From a virus (lineage: Duplodnaviria; Heunggongvirae; Uroviricota; Caudoviricetes), in IMG/VR virus record IMGVR_UViG_3300000059_000156, positions 1 to 16,462 of that record: a DNA stretch of 16,462 nucleotides. The stretch is one strand, 5' to 3'. The notes beneath the pieces were generated by a model, which worked only from the letters and a program-made list of their open reading frames with translations, made no database searches and had not been told where the DNA came from. Below are positions 1 through 11,053 of the stretch, in pieces. The first letter of the stretch is position 1, and each line of letters opens with the position of its first letter. A program made the translations under genes and the position numbers.

Positions 1-34
1 CGGGATTGCAACCCCGGATATCTAAGTGACGCAT

Positions 35-55
35 AGCCGCGTTAGCGGTTTTTTT
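35..55 (+). terminator. Candidate intrinsic terminator ending an upstream plus-strand gene outside the window
   Basis: Stem AGCCGC (35-40) / GCGGTT (45-50, one G-U pair), loop GTTA, followed by a T-run to 55. Short stem, so modest confidence. Confidence 0.35.
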
Positions 56-136
56 ATGCGTAAAGTACAGCTACATCTAAATTATGGTGGGCTGGGCAGG
101 GCCATCGTAAGATGGGCCGGTTTCACTTAGGCCGGT

Positions 137-195
137 TGTTGCAACCTTGTCCAGCTCACCACCCAATGATTGCAACCTGACGGTGGTGAGTTTTA
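137..195 (+). promoter_or_regulatory. Repeat- and hairpin-containing leader of the antirepressor gene (candidate operator/attenuator region)
   Basis: 9-bp perfect inverted repeat CTCACCACC (155-163) / GGTGGTGAG (182-190) followed by TTTTAT (191-196), ~20 nt before the SD of the 217 ORF. The 18-nt loop contains GATTGCAACC (168-177); the same 10-mer is at 4-13 and a palindromic variant GTTGCAAC at 138-145. Direct repeat GGCCGGTT at 115-122 and 130-137. Confidence 0.3.
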
Positions 196-216
196 TCACT
201 AAGTGAGGTCAATATC

Positions 217-1011
217 ATGACAACTCAAATTTCCGCACAAACTCTTTCCCCAATCTCTCATCAAAATACGCTTGTCATCACCACCGAATTGCTTGCACAA
301 CTGTATGGGACTGAACAAGTCCGAATTCGTCAAAACTACTCTCGTAATGAAGGGCGGTTTGTTGAAGGGAGACATTATTTTTTGGTGGAAGGCGATGAAC
401 TACGGGAGTTGAAACGCAAAGTATCTCAAAGCTACTCTGTGAAAATTGCCAAAAATGTACGTACTATCATTCTCTGGACAGAACGCGGCGCAGCTCGCCA
501 TGCCAAAATGCTGGAAACAGAACAGGCCTGGGAAGTTTTCGAAAAGCTGGAAGATTGTTATTTTAGCCAGCGTCCAGAGAGGCGGAGTACAACTACCGAT
601 GACCGTACTCCCTTACGTGATGCCGTTAATATGCTGGTCGGTAAGAAAGGCATGATGTATCCCGATGCCTACACCATGATTCATCAACGCTTCGCCGTCT
701 CTCACATAGAACAACTGTCACAGACGCAAATGTTAGAGGCGATTGAATACATCCACTGCCTGCTACTCGATGAAAATCAGCCAACCATTCCGGATTTTTC
801 TTTTATCACCACTATCAAAAATGGAAAAGTGACAAGGATGCGCCATGTTGCCAAAGGCGAACATCTGATGACCTTTGACGCTTTCAAAGAGATCGCTGAG
901 CGGGCAGGGTATCTGGTGATCCACAGCGACAATCTGCGAAGTATGACACTGGATAAATTGATGGTAATGGGGAAAAAGTCGGCTGTATCTGTTGCTGATT
1001 CAGCATTTTGA
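217..1011 (+). CDS. Phage antirepressor-like protein (ORF6N/Bro-N-type N-terminal domain)
   Basis: 264-aa ORF with SD-like GTGAGGT about 8 nt upstream of the ATG. The N-terminal stretch VITTELLAQLYGTEQVRIRQNYSRNEGRFVEGRHYFLVEGDELRELK fits my recollection of the ORF6N domain pattern of phage antirepressors. Family assignment is from memory, not a search. Confidence 0.7.
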   Translation: MTTQISAQTLSPISHQNTLVITTELLAQLYGTEQVRIRQNYSRNEGRFVEGRHYFLVEGDELRELKRKVSQSYSVKIAKNVRTIILWTERGAARHAKMLETEQAWEVFEKLEDCYFSQRPERRSTTTDDRTPLRDAVNMLVGKKGMMYPDAYTMIHQRFAVSHIEQLSQTQMLEAIEYIHCLLLDENQPTIPDFSFITTIKNGKVTRMRHVAKGEHLMTFDAFKEIAERAGYLVIHSDNLRSMTLDKLMVMGKKSAVSVADSAF

Positions 1012-1390
1012 CAGGTTGTTTGGGGTGGAAATACTCTATTTGCGCTTAGGATACTTGTTAGCTACTTCCACTTTTGTCACAAAGCGGACTATCTGGCTGA
1101 GCTGAGGGTCCGCAGTGAGTGAGGATCGAACATTTAAGCGTCGGTACTGATGACGGATTTGAGGTATTTAAAATATTACAGGAGCTAGTGTGGATGTGAC
1201 AGACATAAAAGTGGATGCAGTCAGAAAAGATATATGTATAGCAGGCTTCTTCGAGGACTAGATCAATCAATAAGATTTAGATAAAATTGCAGTGTTAAAT
1301 AAAAAGACTAGTAGTATTTAAACTTTAAGTGCGTTAGTAAAGTCGTGCAATTATATAAAACTAACGTTTTCTGAATGTTTGGAGAGTAAA

Positions 1391-2086
1391 ATGTTAGAAC
1401 CGCCAAAGAATTATAATGAAATGTTACCCATGCTCCATAAGGCAACTTTTATTACTACATTTATATTTTACCTATCATTGGTTATTTATGGCTACATACC
1501 ATTGGTTGGCATTAATACCAAGTACATTCCACCAATCAAAGACTACGAAGAGTTTATTAAATGGATATTAACATTCGGTATATTACCAATTGCATTCTCA
1601 ATTTTTTGGTCTGTGATTAGTGGAGTTTTAGATCTACATAATAACGTGGCAAAAATTCTTGGAATAAGAAAAGCATGGAATAATTACTTAATTGTTAAAC
1701 CATTGGCGCAAGTTGCAGGCGTTACAAGAAAATTAACTAGTGATGAATCCTCCAAAGTAATGAACAAACTGTATTACCCAGAAGTTAATGAGTTAAAAGA
1801 TAGACATTATGTTGAGCTCTTCTGGAATAAAGTTTATTACTTTTGGGTTTTCTTTGAACATACTGTGATTGCATTTATTACTGTTTTAGTAATAAGTTTT
1901 GCTAAATTAACCCATTTATTCTCTGTGACTGGTTCTTTAAAAATTCTTTGGTTGTGGGTTATTTTTATTGTTGTCTTTAATTTTCTTATTTTTATAGCAT
2001 CCGTTAAACCCAGAACTGAAGGCCAAGTCAGACAAATACCTGATGATAAGATAAAGGAATTTTTTAAAAATAACAGTATTTTTTAA
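1391..2086 (+). CDS. Hypothetical integral membrane protein (about 4 predicted TM helices), AT-rich island gene
   Basis: The ORF track starts at a TTG at 1379; I prefer the ATG at 1391, which has SD GGAGAG (1381-1386) 4 nt upstream. Four long hydrophobic stretches (e.g. FITTFIFYLSLVIYGYIPLVGI, ILTFGILPIAFSIFWSVISGVL, VYYFWVFFEHTVIAFITVLVISF, ILWLWVIFIVVFNFLIFIASV). Very AT-rich coding sequence. No family recognised. Confidence 0.6.
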   Translation: MLEPPKNYNEMLPMLHKATFITTFIFYLSLVIYGYIPLVGINTKYIPPIKDYEEFIKWILTFGILPIAFSIFWSVISGVLDLHNNVAKILGIRKAWNNYLIVKPLAQVAGVTRKLTSDESSKVMNKLYYPEVNELKDRHYVELFWNKVYYFWVFFEHTVIAFITVLVISFAKLTHLFSVTGSLKILWLWVIFIVVFNFLIFIASVKPRTEGQVRQIPDDKIKEFFKNNSIF

Positions 2087-2752
2087 ATGAGGCTAGTTTT
2101 GAATTACAAAATAAATGGAATGATTATACGTTCAGAAAATGCAGCAAAACCGCATACTATGCCATCTAACTATCTCTGTAACTATATTGAAAATTCTGTT
2201 AAAAATGGCATAGCCCTTGATTTCGGATGTGGAAAGCTTAGATATTCAGAACAACTAGTAAATAAATTTGAAGCTGTGACATTTTTAGATTCCAGAAAAC
2301 AGTTAGAAAGAGTGCAAATTATCAGAGGCGTACAAACCACAATTCCAGAGTATGTGGCTAATAATTATAAAAATGCTAATGTTGTCCCTTTTGAAAGTAT
2401 AGATAAAATAAAAGATAATTATGATTTCATACTTTGCGCAAACGTGCTTTCCGCAATTCCATGTAAATCAACAATTTACAAAATCATCAATGAGATTGGG
2501 AGATTATTAAAAAATGATGGTGAAGCAATTATTGTTAATCAATACAAAAGCTCATATTTCAAAAAGTATGAGACTGGAATTAAACATTTGCATGGATATA
2601 TATACCAAAACTCTCGCAATGCTTTCTATTATGGCTTATTGGATGAGAATATTGTAAGTAAAATTTGCTTAGATAACAATTTAGCAGTAATAAAGTCATG
2701 GAGCAAAGCTGGCAGTTCATATGTGGTTGTTGGTAAAAATAAACATAATTAG
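2087..2752 (+). CDS. Class I SAM-dependent methyltransferase-fold protein (substrate unknown; no DNA-methyltransferase catalytic motif seen)
   Basis: Start ATG overlaps the upstream stop (TAAATG at 2084-2089), indicating translational coupling. Canonical Rossmann-MTase motifs at canonical spacing: motif I ALDFGCGK (aa 43-50), post-I acidic residue in VTFLDSR (aa 64-70), motif II YDFILCANVL (aa 112-121), motif III LLKNDGEAIIV (aa 140-150). No (D/N)PP(Y/F/W) motif, so not a typical N6A/N4C DNA MTase. Confidence 0.6.
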   Translation: MRLVLNYKINGMIIRSENAAKPHTMPSNYLCNYIENSVKNGIALDFGCGKLRYSEQLVNKFEAVTFLDSRKQLERVQIIRGVQTTIPEYVANNYKNANVVPFESIDKIKDNYDFILCANVLSAIPCKSTIYKIINEIGRLLKNDGEAIIVNQYKSSYFKKYETGIKHLHGYIYQNSRNAFYYGLLDENIVSKICLDNNLAVIKSWSKAGSSYVVVGKNKHN

Positions 2753-3079
2753 TAAATTTAAAAATAATATTAGAGGGTGCCATTTTCTTATTACTTATTA
2801 ACTCACTGGGGTAGGGGCAACACGCCCCACCTCATCAAGTTACTGCAGGATTACAGACTTTTGTCAAAACGTTGGAAAAATTCAGTACAAACTTTTCCAT
2901 GTTTTTCCTAATCATAGATAATGATGCTCACTTATGTTAACAGCTTCTTGTACATAACGGTCTTCTTCAACAGGACAGCTATAAGTGAAGAAATAAAGTC
3001 GATAAACTATAAAGAGGCTCCAAATAAATATTATTCAATGAAGCCTGCTGTTTATTATTTGTTATTATTAAATCGCTAC

Positions 3080-3979
3080 TTATAATTCAACAATTTTTAG
3101 TATTATATCAATATTATTTAGCCTTGCAATCTCTGATGAATCGTTTGCAATTTTATCTTTTAAATTATCAATGTTAATCATATCTTCAGAGCTAATACAA
3201 ACCATATCACCTTGGTTAACTTTTGATTTGTTCACTATGGCTTGAATAACAGACAGATCGTCCATTACACCTCTCAGGAATTTAACCATGCTTTGATCCT
3301 TGAAATCAGATATCGATTTTGAACGTTGCTTACGTTGGATTGTTCCTTTTGTAATTATTTCGTTAATTTCTTTTAAACCGGCAAGCATATCAGATATGCT
3401 TCCTTCGCAACTCATCCTGTGTTTAATAGCATTGCGATTAATAACATTGAGTATTATTTCGAGTGAATCTCTATCATCCCATGGCGATAATAATGTATAA
3501 TCCTGATGGCGATGAATGGCATCAAGCATATCAAGGATCATATTTTCATCTGCTTTATCGCAAAGTTCATTTACAAAATAGCTGGGGTCGATTACTTTAC
3601 AATAACTTGGAACTGAGCATTTTGAGCTTTTACAAAACCCAAAAATATATAAAAAAGGGTATATGTCTTTTAGACTCTTTCCTGATTTATTTTCTTTTTC
3701 AAAGGCTGCGATTGTTTTTTTAATTTTTGCCGGGGTTGCTTTCGTTGTAACTTGAACTGCTATCATGTTTTTATTGTCAGCTAAATCAATGGCGGGAAAG
3801 TTAACTTTAATCTGATTCATGTTTTCCAGTTCCCCCATTTTCAGTGCGCGAAACATATAAATGGTCAATGACTCAATCATTCTTTCCATGTCATGAAAGC
3901 CAGTCTGTTTGCGTTGTTCGATATAAAGCTGAAGTAGCGCAATATCTTTCTGTAAGTTACTAATAAGTGGGGCAATCAT
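3080..3979 (-). CDS. SMEK-like domain protein (N-terminal SMEK-type domain, uncharacterised C-terminal region)
   Basis: 299-aa ORF with AAGGA SD 9 nt upstream of the ATG on the minus strand. The N-terminal segment NQIKVNFPAIDLADNKNMIAVQVTTKATPAKIKKTIAAF (aa 55-93) matches the hallmark I remember for SMEK domains (N-(F/A)-x-AIDL-x-D ... IA-x-QVT-(S/T) ... K-x-K-x-T-(I/L)-x-x-F). From memory only. Confidence 0.6.
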   Translation of the reverse strand: MIAPLISNLQKDIALLQLYIEQRKQTGFHDMERMIESLTIYMFRALKMGELENMNQIKVNFPAIDLADNKNMIAVQVTTKATPAKIKKTIAAFEKENKSGKSLKDIYPFLYIFGFCKSSKCSVPSYCKVIDPSYFVNELCDKADENMILDMLDAIHRHQDYTLLSPWDDRDSLEIILNVINRNAIKHRMSCEGSISDMLAGLKEINEIITKGTIQRKQRSKSISDFKDQSMVKFLRGVMDDLSVIQAIVNKSKVNQGDMVCISSEDMINIDNLKDKIANDSSEIARLNNIDIILKIVEL

Positions 3980-4512
3980 AGCTAATAATCCTTTTCAATT
4001 AAGTAGGGGATGTGTTTGAGCTTCTTTATTTGACTGTTAGTTTAATTTCTTGTTTTCATATTAACAAGCTCTACAATTTTATCAAGATTTCTCAAAAACT
4101 AATCCTCCGTGTAAATCCACTAACTATACTGAATTTATTCCGCTGTAAAACATGTCCGCTCATGGCTGTGAGTTCAACGGGTCGATGTAACGCCATCCAC
4201 TCAGTAAAATTGTGTAATTCCAGTGAGCAGGCGAATCTTCAGTATGCTCTAGTTTCTTACTCACACCTGCTTATGCTTTAACTATGTACAATGTAGATAA
4301 ACTCTCATGTTGATTTATCGCCATGATCACATTTCCGGAAGAAAAATTTTGTTTGTAACCTTGCTAGATGAGACAGTATAGATATCATTACATATGAAAC
4401 AGTACATTAGGGAACACTGAAGGCCGTAACTTTAAAAAATATAATTAATTGTACATAATTTTATAACCATCAAGATGGTGGCAATTATATAAGTAATAAT
4501 AAGGGTTGATTA

Positions 4513-5865
4513 ATGATTAAATTCACAGAAAAGGAAATACAAAATTACATATGGGAAAATAGGAACAATTTTCCCGAACTGCTTATTGAACCTGCAGGTC
4601 TTGAAGTACTTGAATTCAACGAAGATCTCTCTGATGTAACAGCACAACTGCTAATAAAAAACAGAATAAATAGTAAACTATCCAATCTTCACTCTAAGCT
4701 TTATGGACTGGAATTTATCGGCTGCGAAGTTCCTTTAGAACAAAATTCAAACTCAACAATTAGAGCCGATTTTTTGGCTATATTCTGTGATGATACTGGG
4801 CTTGCTGTCATAGAGCTTAAAAAAAGTGAACAAACTGAAAGGCAAGCATTCACTGAATTGTTAGCATATTCAAACCATATGACAACATTATTTCCATCCA
4901 TGACGAAAAATGACAGTGTGTATATTTTAATATCACCAATGGAAACCAGAATAGCACGTGATGCTGTCATCCAAAGTTTAATATTTGACAATAGGGATAT
5001 CATTACTTTAATTCCAACATTCTCTGATCCTCTTGATATTACATCTCTTAAACTTGAATTATGGATTCCAGACCAAACAGAGTTAGCGACTTTCTCAAAT
5101 ATTGCATTTAGAGAAGATAATTTTAGTGTCTGTAAATTATCCTGGGAGTATGACGCAGAGCGATGGGATGCAGCTAGAGGAGAAGAACTTTTACATTCAT
5201 TTGTTAGTCAATTTGATAACATTTCCTGCCTTGCAGCTCAGTATATGGAAGAATCTGGAGTTCATGGTTTTACTTATTGCTCTCAGTTATGGCCTGAATT
5301 ATCTCAGGCATTACCTTTTACGAATTCATTAGTACTAGTTGGCATGAATCCTTATGCTGTCGGGAGTGTCCAGCATTTATCCACAGAAGACGATAACTAT
5401 GATGATATTCCAGACCCAAATTCTTACACTCCTCACATATCTGAATTAATTGGTAAACTAGGTGAAGGAGAACTATATGAGGCTAATATTGATGTCCTAA
5501 GTGGTTTACATTGTACATGGATCTCTCAATTATATCGTATAGGTAAGCAGGTAATTGAACTCACCACTAGAAATACAGATGGGAAATACGTCCACGTTGA
5601 ATATGGCTTTATGAATTGGGAAATCTATCAAAGGTCTCTACTTGAGGATGTTTTCTGTGAAAACTTCGCTATTAGGTCTACAGGTTTAATACGACATCTC
5701 TATACTGACATTCTTAAATTAGATTATGATTTTTGTAAAAATAACGGATTGGAAAATCACCCTATTCATGGAGACATGCCATACTTAGGTGTCAATTTTC
5801 TTAAATCCCACCAGCACTTTAGAGAATTTATTTTGCGAATGTTCTATGCCGAAATAGATGCGTAG
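4513..5865 (+). CDS. Predicted PD-(D/E)xK-family nuclease-like protein with a large uncharacterised C-terminal region
   Basis: 450-aa ORF with SD AAGGG 8 nt upstream. N-terminal motif E72 ... RAD86FLAIFCDDTGLAVIE101LK103 has the D-x15-ExK spacing typical of restriction-endonuclease-fold active sites. The remaining ~340 aa are unrecognised. AT-rich. Confidence 0.65.
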   Translation: MIKFTEKEIQNYIWENRNNFPELLIEPAGLEVLEFNEDLSDVTAQLLIKNRINSKLSNLHSKLYGLEFIGCEVPLEQNSNSTIRADFLAIFCDDTGLAVIELKKSEQTERQAFTELLAYSNHMTTLFPSMTKNDSVYILISPMETRIARDAVIQSLIFDNRDIITLIPTFSDPLDITSLKLELWIPDQTELATFSNIAFREDNFSVCKLSWEYDAERWDAARGEELLHSFVSQFDNISCLAAQYMEESGVHGFTYCSQLWPELSQALPFTNSLVLVGMNPYAVGSVQHLSTEDDNYDDIPDPNSYTPHISELIGKLGEGELYEANIDVLSGLHCTWISQLYRIGKQVIELTTRNTDGKYVHVEYGFMNWEIYQRSLLEDVFCENFAIRSTGLIRHLYTDILKLDYDFCKNNGLENHPIHGDMPYLGVNFLKSHQHFREFILRMFYAEIDA

Positions 5866-6422
5866 TGAGATTTTTTGGTTTATCTCTGCTGGAGAAAATT
5901 CATGGGTGAGGAAAGAGATAGATAATATTGAAAATAAAATCTTCAAAAGATGTGGAAATAAAGACATGATCTAAAATTTTTTGGCATTCATTTCATATGA
6001 AACAGCCCTTCTAAAAACTATACAGGCATGGATGATATTTTCTTATGATTTTTTAGTTGTAATTTATCTTTACTATATAATATATGGGGGGATTGTCGCC
6101 AGCTATTCACCGACTATCAAATATCAATAACTCCTGGCAGTTCTGTAAGGTATAGACATACAAATCGGCCTGAAGATTACGGATAGTTTCTTAAGGTCCG
6201 TTCCTGGCACAAAGTGGACTGTCAAATGAAATTCGGCTCCACGCCATAGATGTGTCAGCTCATATCTTATCTAATACACACAATAACTTTCTCATTCTTG
6301 GAGAATTATTTTTTTAAGGGTAGGTGTTGACGTTAGAGCAAAAGAATGGTGATTTTTTTGATGTGTATTACGTTGGAACTGATGGGAATAACTATCTGTT
6401 TTCAACGCACTGCTAATTTATC

Positions 6423-6444
6423 AAGGCCCTTTGATCAGGGCCTT
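6423..6444 (-). terminator. Perfect 8-bp hairpin just downstream of the minus-strand ImmA operon; possible terminator or protein-binding palindrome
   Basis: AAGGCCCT (6423-6430), loop TTGATC, AGGGCCTT (6437-6444), ~25 nt beyond the stop of the 6469-7074 gene on the minus strand. No clean U-tract on either strand, so terminator function is uncertain. Confidence 0.3.
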
Positions 6445-6468
6445 CGAAAGACTGTTGGACCGAGAGAG

Positions 6469-7074
6469 TTACTTGCGTTTAAAAAGGTATTTTGTCACGA
6501 CCAGCACGAGGCCGAATACCTCTGTCAAAGTACCGCCCATGTACAACTGGAGCGTTAAGTCTTTAAATACAAGCCATTCAGCACCAGTGGCAAAAAATAC
6601 ACCATTCATTATCAAAAGCTGGCAAGCAAGGATAATAAGGAACCATTTGCCATAGCGTTTTTTTAGATCGATTTCAGCTTCAAAATCTTTGTTGTTGAGT
6701 TGTTTGCGCTCATGCTCAGTATCAAGTGAATTCACCTGTTTCACAGATGTGAACTCGGTCAAGATTTTACTCTCAGTACGGGTGACTTGTTGAGAGGGGG
6801 TAGGAATTGGAATTCTTTTGATTGACGCAGCTACAGCCATTTTGCGAGCTTCGGCAGCTCTTTTTCTGGCTATTCCGTGAATACGGGCAGACGGTTTTTT
6901 TGGAGCGTGCGAAACCTTTGGCTGAGGTGAAGTTTCGTCAGGAGACTGAACCGGAGTTTCATCGTCCTCCGGCTCAACCTCTTCTGCTAACTGACGGTGT
7001 AGGTTGAGGGAATCCTTCAGTCGGCGTGCAACTTCCTGTTTGAAACGGCTGTTAAAATCGTCATCCGATGGCAT
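6469..7074 (-). CDS. Hypothetical membrane protein: acidic/Pro-rich N-terminal region, basic middle, two C-terminal TM helices
   Basis: 201-aa ORF starting 9 nt after the stop of the ImmA-like gene (operon). C-terminal hydrophobic segments WFLIILACQLLIMNGVFFATG and LTEVFGLVLVVTKYLF; N-terminus EEVEPEDDETPVQSPDETSPQP looks low-complexity/disordered. Confidence 0.7.
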   Translation of the reverse strand: MPSDDDFNSRFKQEVARRLKDSLNLHRQLAEEVEPEDDETPVQSPDETSPQPKVSHAPKKPSARIHGIARKRAAEARKMAVAASIKRIPIPTPSQQVTRTESKILTEFTSVKQVNSLDTEHERKQLNNKDFEAEIDLKKRYGKWFLIILACQLLIMNGVFFATGAEWLVFKDLTLQLYMGGTLTEVFGLVLVVTKYLFKRK

Positions 7075-7083
7075 TCTAAAGCG

Positions 7084-7572
7084 TTACCCCAACCTCAAGT
7101 TCTTTAAACGATAAGTCATCGCATCGTCAGATACGCCAAAATAATGCGCCATTATATAACTTGGTTGGCCGTCAGCGTGCAGTTTTCTGACCTCATCAAC
7201 CGGCATCAGAAGTTCTGCTGCGAACTTGTTCGCAAAAATTTCATCAGGATGCGTTCCGGCGCTTGCGGTTTCGCCACGTAAATCAACGTACTCATATTCA
7301 TCACTATGCGATGCTTGCCGGGCGATGTAATGCCCCAACTCATGCCCACATGAAAAACGTTGACGAACTTTGTTGTCATCACTGTTTAGAAAGATCGCTG
7401 GATCTTGATCTTTTTGTTTAATCAGTGCGCCAGAAACTTTCCCAGGAAGATCGGTAATAAAAACATCTAATCCCATGTCGTGAGCAATTTTCGCTGGATC
7501 AACAGGGAAACCACGCCCGCACCAGAACGTGTCCAGCACTCGCCGGGCGTGCTCTCTTGGGTTGGTAGCCAT
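7084..7572 (-). CDS. ImmA/IrrE-family zinc metallopeptidase-like protein
   Basis: 162-aa ORF with strong SD (GGAGGAG) upstream of the ATG on the minus strand. HEXXH zinc-binding motif in SCGHELGHYIA; size and motif context are typical of ImmA/IrrE (COG2856-type) peptidases of mobile elements. Confidence 0.8.
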   Translation of the reverse strand: MATNPREHARRVLDTFWCGRGFPVDPAKIAHDMGLDVFITDLPGKVSGALIKQKDQDPAIFLNSDDNKVRQRFSCGHELGHYIARQASHSDEYEYVDLRGETASAGTHPDEIFANKFAAELLMPVDEVRKLHADGQPSYIMAHYFGVSDDAMTYRLKNLRLG

Positions 7573-7948
7573 AGCTCCTCCAGTTACTGCATTACGATTA
7601 ATGGTCGAAATATAGACAGCATGTTCCGTACCACATTCCTGTAAAAGTGCAAATTCTGCACTTCTGGTACGATATTAACTGTTAGTAGTAAAGTCTTCCA
7701 GATAAATCACTTTAAAATCTTGTGAATTGCTTGCTTTTTACGCTGCATTGTGGATGGCTCAATGTTTCCAGTAAAAACATACAGGATAATCATGAGATTA
7801 GTGGTTTTTTAGGCGTCCATATGTTTCTGAAAAATACAGGTCTAACCTGATCTTATCGTTGAGATTTTTTGTACTCAGTATGTGTGAACGATTCGACCAG
7901 GTGACTGTGTACGTGAAGAAGACCGCCCTTAATATTTTAAATGTGCAA

Positions 7949-10093: not shown

Positions 10094-10383
10094 AAAAAAT
10101 CGACCTGAGAAAAGCTGCACGTGGTCGCGCTTGTACTGTGCGTATCCCCGGTGTGTGCAATCACAAGCCTGAAACCAGCGTACTGGCTCATTATCGTCTC
10201 GCCGGAACGTGCGGCACAGCCATCAAACCTCACGATATGCAGGGCGCTATCGCCTGCAGTGCGTGTCACGATGCCATCGACGGACGTACAAAAACGGATT
10301 ACGAGCGTGATTCCTTATTACTGATGCACGCTGAGGGAGTTTTCAGAACACTGGCTATCTGGCGCGATGAGGGGGTTATCTGA
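10090..10383 (+). CDS. ybcO: YbcO-like (DUF1364) putative Cys-rich nuclease-like protein of lambdoid nin regions
   Basis: 97-aa ORF. LRKAARGRACTVRIPGVCNHKPETSVLAHYRLAGTCGTAIKP ... IACSACHDAIDGRT matches my recollection of E. coli DLP12 YbcO almost motif for motif. Translationally coupled on both sides. Confidence 0.75.
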   Translation: MKKIDLRKAARGRACTVRIPGVCNHKPETSVLAHYRLAGTCGTAIKPHDMQGAIACSACHDAIDGRTKTDYERDSLLLMHAEGVFRTLAIWRDEGVI

Positions 10384-10622
10384 TGAATAACGAGTATTTA
10401 TTGGAATATACCCGCATAAAACTGCGCGCTGCATTGCGGGATTTGTCTGGTGGTTCTAAGGGGCAACTGGAAGCATTGTGTGAGCACCCACCGGCAGACA
10501 AAAACGCATACCCACGCAAACATATTCACCGTGTGCAGCTGGAGGACCGGACCGTTGATGCTCTGGTTACGCCAGTTTACGCTCTGGAAAGTTTTAGCAG
10601 ACGTCGCCCGCGCCGCCGATGA
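10383..10622 (+). CDS. Hypothetical small protein (79 aa) with Arg-rich C-terminus
   Basis: Start overlaps the ybcO-like stop (TGATG) and its stop overlaps the next start (ATGA), so it sits inside a tightly coupled operon. No family recognised. Confidence 0.55.
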   Translation: MNNEYLLEYTRIKLRAALRDLSGGSKGQLEALCEHPPADKNAYPRKHIHRVQLEDRTVDALVTPVYALESFSRRRPRRR

Positions 10623-11053
10623 ATGATTTTGAATTTGCTGATTCATCCTGGCGGCGTTCTGTGAACTCGCTGGATGCAAGTCAGCAAGCGTGGTTGCGTT
10701 ATTGCTACGGTGGTAACCTGGCGTTCAAACACCAAACAGCTATTTGTGAGGCTGTCTGGAGTCGCTATAAAGGACACATCCCCGCGTCAACTCAGAGAAA
10801 AGTAGTTAAGCGCCTGCTTTCGTTGGTGTGGTTGTCCGTGCAGGCGGTTGCAGCAGCAAATAAACGCGAGGATTTTAAGGAGATGGCCGGGTCTGCGCTA
10901 GCTGGAATGTTGTCTGTTTCTCGTTCCACCTGGTGCGAAACATACTCCCCGCACTGGGCAGGAATGAAAGAGGCGGTGAGAGCACTTGATGAAATGGCAC
11001 TTCTTGCAACTTTGCATCATTATCAGAACCATTTAGACGACGTTTGCGTATAA
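10619..11053 (+). CDS. Putative late-gene antiterminator (Q-like), assigned mainly by position
   Basis: 144-aa ORF immediately upstream of a promoter-like hexamer, a terminator hairpin and the lysis cassette, which is the canonical Q position in lambdoid phages. I cannot confirm Q family membership from sequence alone. Confidence 0.45.
   Translation: MNDFEFADSSWRRSVNSLDASQQAWLRYCYGGNLAFKHQTAICEAVWSRYKGHIPASTQRKVVKRLLSLVWLSVQAVAAANKREDFKEMAGSALAGMLSVSRSTWCETYSPHWAGMKEAVRALDEMALLATLHHYQNHLDDVCV

Follow-up and report, generated by a model that had tools for sequence, protein, structure and literature searches.

The DNA analysed here (the window) is a 16,462-nt stretch from a virus (Caudoviricetes; IMG/VR record IMGVR_UViG_3300000059_000156). 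The gene under study lies at positions 4513..5865 (+ strand). It belongs to a lambdoid prophage, in which the replication genes lie on one side of it and the Q antiterminator on the other. As proposed in a preliminary description of the same DNA, it is an intact ORF for a 450-aa protein, running from ATG to TAG (stop codon included), and an AAGGG ribosome-binding site is located 8–12 nt 5′ of the ATG. The AT-rich island in which that description placed the gene is also evident, with a GC content of 30–37% over positions ~1000–6500 vs. 45–56% in the flanks. A total of 231 homologs were retrieved, nearly all of them full-length (~430–480 aa), from Gammaproteobacteria, Bacteroidota, Bacillota and further phyla, and an exhaustive HMM search at E ≤ 1e-3 yielded 406 cluster representatives (50% clustering). 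Comparison with the copy from Serratia gave a dN/dS of 0.098, indicating that the + frame is under purifying selection. The 450-aa gene is thus real and well conserved, and no artefact of the ORF finder. An 89-aa ORF with a GTG start (4012–4281) was also considered as a gene and rejected; it has no family match, and RefSeq leaves its copy in the YZMc3-1 prophage unannotated.

The prophage location suggested earlier could be specified as a variable cargo slot. The flanks of the slot, an ORF6N gene on the left and a pair formed by a hypothetical gene and an ImmA/IrrE gene from position 6205 on the right, are common to many E. coli prophages, and 610 genomes match some part of window 1–7700. Other strains carry at this site an LprI-family gene or a GIY-YIG/T5orf172 nuclease, plus small unknown genes; the same flanks with differing cargo define the slot (window ~1050–6205). 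In the window it is filled by two independent modules, the nuclease cassette and a block (1232–4166) composed of a hypothetical gene (1379–2086), a class I SAM methyltransferase (2087–2752) and a divergent SMEK-domain gene (3080–3979, − strand). Many E. coli genomes without the nuclease gene contain this block as a whole (~83.5% identity), and it may be a separate multi-gene system. The N-domain of the SMEK protein matches a PADLOC Argonaute-associated model (E 6e-20). The nuclease gene itself was found in 5 of 5426 complete E. coli genomes, one copy in each. No match to the family was detected in 50,697 deposited phage genomes, and in IMG/VR the family is carried by only 6 contigs.

Several other features of the prophage were observed. 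At 80–166 (+) the window encodes a C4 antisense RNA (Rfam RF01695, 77.7 bits, full length), directly 5′ of the ORF6N/antirepressor-like gene (217–1011); together they constitute a P1/P7-type c4-ant immunity module within a lambdoid prophage. A 35-nt segment of the ImmA/IrrE gene (7332–7366) is 100% identical to a CRISPR-annotated feature of E. coli JX21CE8 (NZ_CP178438.1, 2025065–2025099), which is probably a natural spacer against the prophage backbone. The Q antiterminator gene (10383–11053) is split into two ORFs by the loss of 1 nt from a C-run at ~10607, as compared with the YZMc3-1 prophage, in which the gene is intact (672 bp). This reflects either an error in sequencing a homopolymer or a prophage with a defect in late transcription.

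A mobile single-gene cassette

To define the extent of the nuclease module, we compared the prophage with the chromosome of Serratia inhibens. DNA homology between the two spans window positions 4189–6180 at 82.3% identity, and the ends defined in this way are within ~25 bp of the boundaries deduced inside E. coli, the shared prophage backbone resuming at 6205. The cassette therefore comprises the gene, a 5′ flank (4189..4512, +) and a non-coding 3′ flank (5866..6180, +). The ~320 bp 5′ of the gene are about as conserved as its coding sequence, which suggests that the gene probably carries its own promoter. Two promoter-like sites were found there by scanning, TTGCTA-16-TATCAT (4361–4388, +) and TTTAAA-17-CATAAT (4431–4459, +), neither of them above the expectation from shuffled sequences. 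A terminator scan of 5866..6180 detected no terminator-like hairpin.

The gene is bracketed by an 18-nt direct repeat, with an upstream copy TCATTACATATGAAACAG at 4385..4402 (+) and a downstream copy TCATTTCATATGAAACAG, with the palindromic core TTTCATATGAAA, at 5988..6005 (+). A second match is expected by chance 0.01 times, so that a chance origin of the repeat is unlikely. Both copies are kept in Escherichia, yet the downstream one is degenerate in the Serratia cassette, which makes a function of this copy doubtful.

In Serratia the cassette adjoins a SIR2 + HerA pair, both members of which are confirmed by PADLOC models. The dS between the Escherichia and Serratia genes is only 0.46 and the GC content is ~35%; on these sequence measures the transfer would have been recent and from a low-GC source. 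The unit that travels between the defence hotspots of prophages and chromosomes is discrete, ~2 kb long and contains this one gene.

Domain structure of the 450-aa protein

The preliminary description had assigned to the protein an N-terminal PD-(D/E)xK motif consisting of E72, D86, E101 and K103. All four residues are located as claimed (E72 4726–4728, D86 4768–4770, E101 4813–4815, K103 4819–4821; the peptide RADFLAIFCDDTGLAVIELK corresponds to aa 84–103), but the motif was incomplete, as a glutamate that is invariant superfamily-wide, E6, had been missed. The four residues are invariant in an alignment of 36 full-length homologs of 36–91% identity and in 49 N-domain sequences down to ~31% identity, a conservation that, judged from these alignments, is far beyond chance. 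A wider superfamily alignment of 55 sequences covered three architectures, namely the ~450-aa family and distant relatives of ~400 aa and ~700 aa. D86, E101, K103 and E6 are invariant in 55/55 of these sequences. Together with R110, T114, E115 and Y119 they make up the nuclease-domain positions kept across the three architectures, invariant or with at most a couple of exceptions (n = 55), and the C-terminal positions G252, F253, P280, W369 and G391 are kept likewise. Position 72 is E in the 450-aa family, while distant relatives have mostly D or E and in a few cases N or T. By this alignment, the fourth acid with the highest conservation is E6, the glutamate of helix 1.

An AlphaFold2 model built from the alignment is confident (pLDDT 87.5, pTM 0.88). 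It begins with a helical segment (aa 1–63; 4513..4701, +), which contains the invariant E6 (4528–4530) and a conserved Q10 in helix 1, followed by the nuclease core (aa 64–185; 4702..5067, +). The succession of a helix (44–63), three strands (66–75, 83–91, 97–102), a second helix (106–126) and a further strand (135–140) forms the canonical α-β-β-β-α-β core of the PD-(D/E)xK fold, in which strand 2 bears D86 and strand 3 bears E101-x-K103. The restriction-endonuclease-like core that had been predicted around D86, E101 and K103 is thus borne out by the model. The nuclease domain, however, reaches ~aa 185, leaving a C-terminal remainder of ~265 aa and not of ~340 aa as estimated before. The model's topology suggests that E6, E72, D86, E101 and K103 may cluster in space. 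A helix characterized by a QxxxY motif is typical of RecB- and NucS-type nucleases, and the helix that follows the core strands here, with R110, T114, E115 and Y119 (4840–4869, +), is presumably its counterpart. The best structural match of the protein is NucS. In addition, matches to HSDR_N recur in 26/36 members, below threshold (best E 0.0016), over aa 76–127, where the catalytic strands are located. Taken together, the results strongly suggest that the N-terminal 185 aa form a NucS-type PD-(D/E)xK domain, and we regard it as highly probable that the protein is a nuclease.

The C-terminal 265 residues (aa 186–450; 5068..5862, +) are confidently predicted as an α/β domain with a generic ferredoxin-like core and long helices. 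Its conserved positions comprise H251-G252-F253 (5263–5271), E262, N271, N279-P280, W369, E378, G391 and D404, and the invariant polar residues are found at H251-G252-F253, E262, N271, N279-P280, E378 and D404. Such a number of invariant polar residues argues for a specific pocket or interface over a passive scaffold. Searches for a specific structural or sequence relative of the domain found none, and no modified-base reader (SRA, EVE/PUA, HhH/EndoIII or winged helix) is detectable in it. In the 36-homolog alignment a conserved FRxFIxRMF stands at the C-terminus of the family, and the acidic tails beyond it vary; on inspection, no clamp-binding pentapeptide, as is present at the C-terminus of NucS/EndoMS, is plainly visible. 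Two other interpretations of this region were discarded. An hhalign comparison of the N-terminal with the C-terminal half gave no match, which speaks against a degenerate second nuclease domain. The fold resembles that of HUH endonucleases, but the His-hydrophobic-His motif and the catalytic Tyr are absent.

Relation to known systems and genomic contexts

The preliminary description did not place the protein in a specific named family, and our searches agree with this. The 450-aa protein has no family above threshold in Pfam and no match in NCBIfam, and PADLOC-DB v2.0.0 gave no significant system match for it (best REase_II E 0.0023 and PDC-S11 E 0.025, both partial) or for its distant relatives. 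Sequence searches of the PDB with the full-length profile, the N-domain profile and two ~700-aa relatives returned no meaningful match, nor did a viral structure library contain a significant one. Public sources label the protein hypothetical, the sole exception being one Vibrio homolog for which the submitter used the label DUF91; a literature search for the accession WP_042097802 found no mention of it. Both the catalytic fold and the general concept of a mobile defence locus that encodes a solitary nuclease plus accessory domain are well known. For the family itself, its C-terminal domain and the three-architecture superfamily, no description was found in the libraries or the literature searched.

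Comparison with characterized nucleases points to several differences. The nuclease domain is structurally similar to that of NucS/EndoMS, an archaeal and actinobacterial mismatch/flap endonuclease (PDB 2vld), yet neither the window protein nor the 36 members match Pfam NucS/DUF91 at E ≤ 0.1. In NucS a β-barrel DNA-binding/dimerisation domain is N-terminal and the nuclease C-terminal, whereas the window protein has its nuclease at the N-terminus, lacks the β-barrel domain (aa 1–63 being helical) and carries an unrelated 265-aa C-terminal domain. NucS is, moreover, a core repair gene, while the window gene is distributed as an accessory mobile gene. The only Pfam family with recurrent matches is the N-terminal nuclease of Type I restriction R subunits (HSDR_N/HSDR_N_2), at 18 vs. 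a gathering score of 25.1 bits; unlike an R subunit, the window protein has no helicase/motor domain and no HsdM/HsdS partners. The PADLOC models of the PD-(D/E)xK defence nucleases Shedu SduA, Hachiman HamA and Can2/Card1 do not match it, and their regulatory domains are unrelated, since it has no DUF4263, DUF1837 or CARF; in SduA, furthermore, the nuclease is at the C-terminus and not at the N-terminus.

END-Mag, in which a NucS-like PD-DExK nuclease is combined with an inactive EndoIII, has been shown experimentally to have anti-phage activity (PMC12191111). The window protein is similar to it in that a NucS-like nuclease is fused to a separate domain in one polypeptide. We rejected an identification as an END nuclease, as the iEndoIII/Ogg1 helix-hairpin-helix sensor is missing and the C-terminal domain is of a mixed α/β, ferredoxin-like type. 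PDC-S11, a PADLOC single-gene defence candidate of a similar size class (models of 358–379 aa), matches weakly through the nuclease core; the E value of the window protein is 0.025, and alphaproteobacterial members of the family reach values as low as 1.1e-6. This match spans only ~75 residues, and the window protein is not a member. No function of PDC-S11 was described in the literature found. YhcG/DUF1016 was also dismissed as a relative (hhalign probability 1.4%); YhcG corresponds to PADLOC PDC-S02 and not to PDC-S11.

The genomic neighbourhood was compared in 62 non-redundant loci from many phyla, which share no conserved partner gene. The most widely shared neighbour family is present in 4/62 loci, all of closely related Pseudomonas. 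An SNF2 helicase was rejected as a partner, since it adjoins the Pseudomonas copies as a clade-specific and convergently oriented neighbour. An adjacent cognate methyltransferase, as in Type II restriction-modification, was likewise not found: DNA methylases account for 2/122 flanking ORFs. A restriction-modification pairing with the 2087–2752 methyltransferase of the window was rejected as well, as the 1232–4166 block and the cassette (4189–6180) occur independently. The gene is stand-alone. Recurring among the 122 flanking ORFs (2–5 ORFs each) are AAA_21/AAA_15 OLD- or Gabija-like ATPases, resolvases, C5 methylases, ArdA and SNF2/ResIII helicases. Among individual copies, that of Aureibacter has a complete Type II restriction-modification system in its context, that of Priestia an OLD-family ATPase-nuclease and that of Bacillus toyonensis an Mrr_cat-pentapeptide protein; in Vibrio the context is HicAB and ParDE at the edge of a prophage, and in Owenweeksia it is YefM-YoeB. 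The Aeromonas copy is a lone insertion between transketolase and alcohol dehydrogenase, one of several copies that stand alone among housekeeping genes.

Distant relatives occur in comparable surroundings. A 403-aa relative (hhalign probability 97.8%, E 1e-12, over aa 1–276) is encoded on an E. coli plasmid of ~112 kb that is non-mobilizable (NZ_CP061757.1; locus L072, 4147–6206), 27 nt 3′ of an AbiGi gene, and related ~111-kb non-mobilizable plasmids bear the same protein, which matches no PADLOC model and no Pfam family above threshold. It occupies the place of the classical AbiGii after the AbiGi gene, and the two may be a new AbiGi-partnered nuclease pair on phage-plasmid-like replicons. 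Two further contexts of short relatives are devoid of AbiGi, and a general pairing was therefore rejected; there is also no AbiGi gene in the window or in the 62 family loci. A 718-aa relative (locus L073, 6001–8157) follows KwaB, a Pol-beta nucleotidyltransferase, HsdR and YgjP in a Kiwa/Type I restriction island. The ~700-aa proteins (P0211, P0220, P0223, P0226 and similar) have the N-terminal nuclease and the ferredoxin-like module plus ~300 further residues, for which Pfam, PADLOC and the PDB gave no match. A 382-aa relative (locus L084, GCA_013048725.1, around 5001–6149) is one of an extended series of small ORFs, all on the same strand, which may represent a chromosomal integron cassette array.

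Proposed function and significance

We propose that the gene encodes a stand-alone, metal-dependent DNA endonuclease and acts as a prophage-borne anti-phage or anti-mobile-element defence gene, a reading to which we assign a probability of roughly one half. Of the earlier proposal of a single-protein defence nuclease with a C-terminal sensor, the nuclease part has become strong, while the defence part is supported by association. On these associative and qualitative grounds a role in defence is, at even odds, the best-supported biological reading. It is suggested by the swappable prophage cargo slot, the extreme patchiness and the recent horizontal transfer as a self-contained cassette, as well as by the repeated nearness to restriction-modification, OLD, SIR2-HerA, Kiwa and toxin-antitoxin genes and by the AbiGi-paired relative. 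Counting against it are the want of a significant PADLOC match, the several lone insertions among housekeeping genes, the absence from the 50,697 deposited phage genomes with no more than 6 IMG/VR contigs, and a C-terminal domain that offers no clue to its ligand.

In the mechanism that we envisage, Mg2+ binding and the activation of a water molecule would fall to E6 (helix 1), D86 (strand 2) and E101-x-K103 (strand 3), with E72 as an auxiliary acid. The C-terminal 265 aa, a putative new ferredoxin-like domain, would pack tightly on the nuclease and may provide target specificity or control of activation. With no methyltransferase and no partner gene, the protein itself should be what discriminates self from non-self, and the C-terminal domain would be the obvious candidate for this role. 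Host DNA might be spared if the feature that the enzyme recognises, be it a modified base, DNA ends or a replication structure, is missing from it, or if the enzyme is inactive until infection. The conserved ~320 bp upstream, presumably containing the gene's own promoter, would allow expression from the lysogen.

Two alternatives are concerned with how such an enzyme would be controlled. As a specific sub-case of the defence-endonuclease explanation, the protein could be a modification-dependent (Type IV-like) restriction endonuclease, its C-terminal domain reading a non-canonical phage base and the NucS-like domain cutting nearby; we consider this rather unlikely, given that the domain is mixed α/β and not helix-hairpin-helix, with none of the known modified-base readers detectable in it. 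It might also be an abortive-infection or toxin-type effector, with the nuclease held inactive until a phage cue at the C-terminal domain releases it to degrade host and phage DNA. The distant relative encoded directly after an AbiGi gene and the many copies that adjoin toxin-antitoxin modules would accord with such an effector, and the absence of a methyltransferase fits activation control. Yet the window has no adjacent antitoxin-like or AbiGi-like gene, none is conserved in the 450-aa family, and AbiGi pairing is confined to one lineage, the two other short relatives being without it, so that this account seems improbable to us.

The readings that dispense with immunity, as a NucS-like repair enzyme or a selfish cassette, fit the data less well than defence. 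Recombination nucleases are classically encoded, in lambdoid phages, between the replication genes and Q, and a function in mismatch, flap or junction processing for phage or host, in the manner of NucS/EndoMS or of an Hjc-type resolvase, would agree with this location, with NucS as the best structural match and with the DUF91 label of the Vibrio homolog. We nevertheless hold it to be very unlikely, as Pfam NucS/DUF91 is not matched, the N-terminal β-barrel is replaced by helices (aa 1–63), and the gene is patchy (5/5426 E. coli genomes), absent from deposited phage genomes and part of the swappable cargo rather than of the phage backbone. That the nuclease drives its own spread as a selfish mobile cassette, like a homing endonuclease or a transposase, to which the HUH-like fold of the C-terminal domain could contribute, appears to us the most improbable of all.

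Extended to the whole superfamily, the defence reading becomes a more tentative one. It would imply a widespread new superfamily of immune nucleases, with the ferredoxin-like domain as a new sensor of a phage nucleic-acid feature or protein, spreading as a self-contained 2-kb cassette. Such a superfamily, proposed with the same reserve, would comprise the 406 representatives (50% clustering) in stand-alone (~450 aa), short (~400 aa, one lineage being AbiGi-paired) and extended (~700 aa) forms. Its range includes Pseudomonadota, Bacteroidota (among them the gut species Parabacteroides), Bacillota, Cyanobacteria and other phyla. If this is true, a broadly distributed single-gene defence family, which current defence-annotation tools miss entirely, would be added to those known, and a well-understood catalytic fold would be joined, in the C-terminal domain, to a new module for regulation or specificity. 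Should the role not be defence, this would still be a large and strongly selected family with a predicted active nuclease. The clean 2-kb cassette and its defined slot in a common E. coli prophage backbone offer a convenient natural case in which prophages and the defence islets of chromosomes exchange single genes as cargo. If the immune reading holds, the family would also be a tractable system for studying how, with no methyltransferase, a nuclease that acts alone distinguishes foreign DNA from that of its host.
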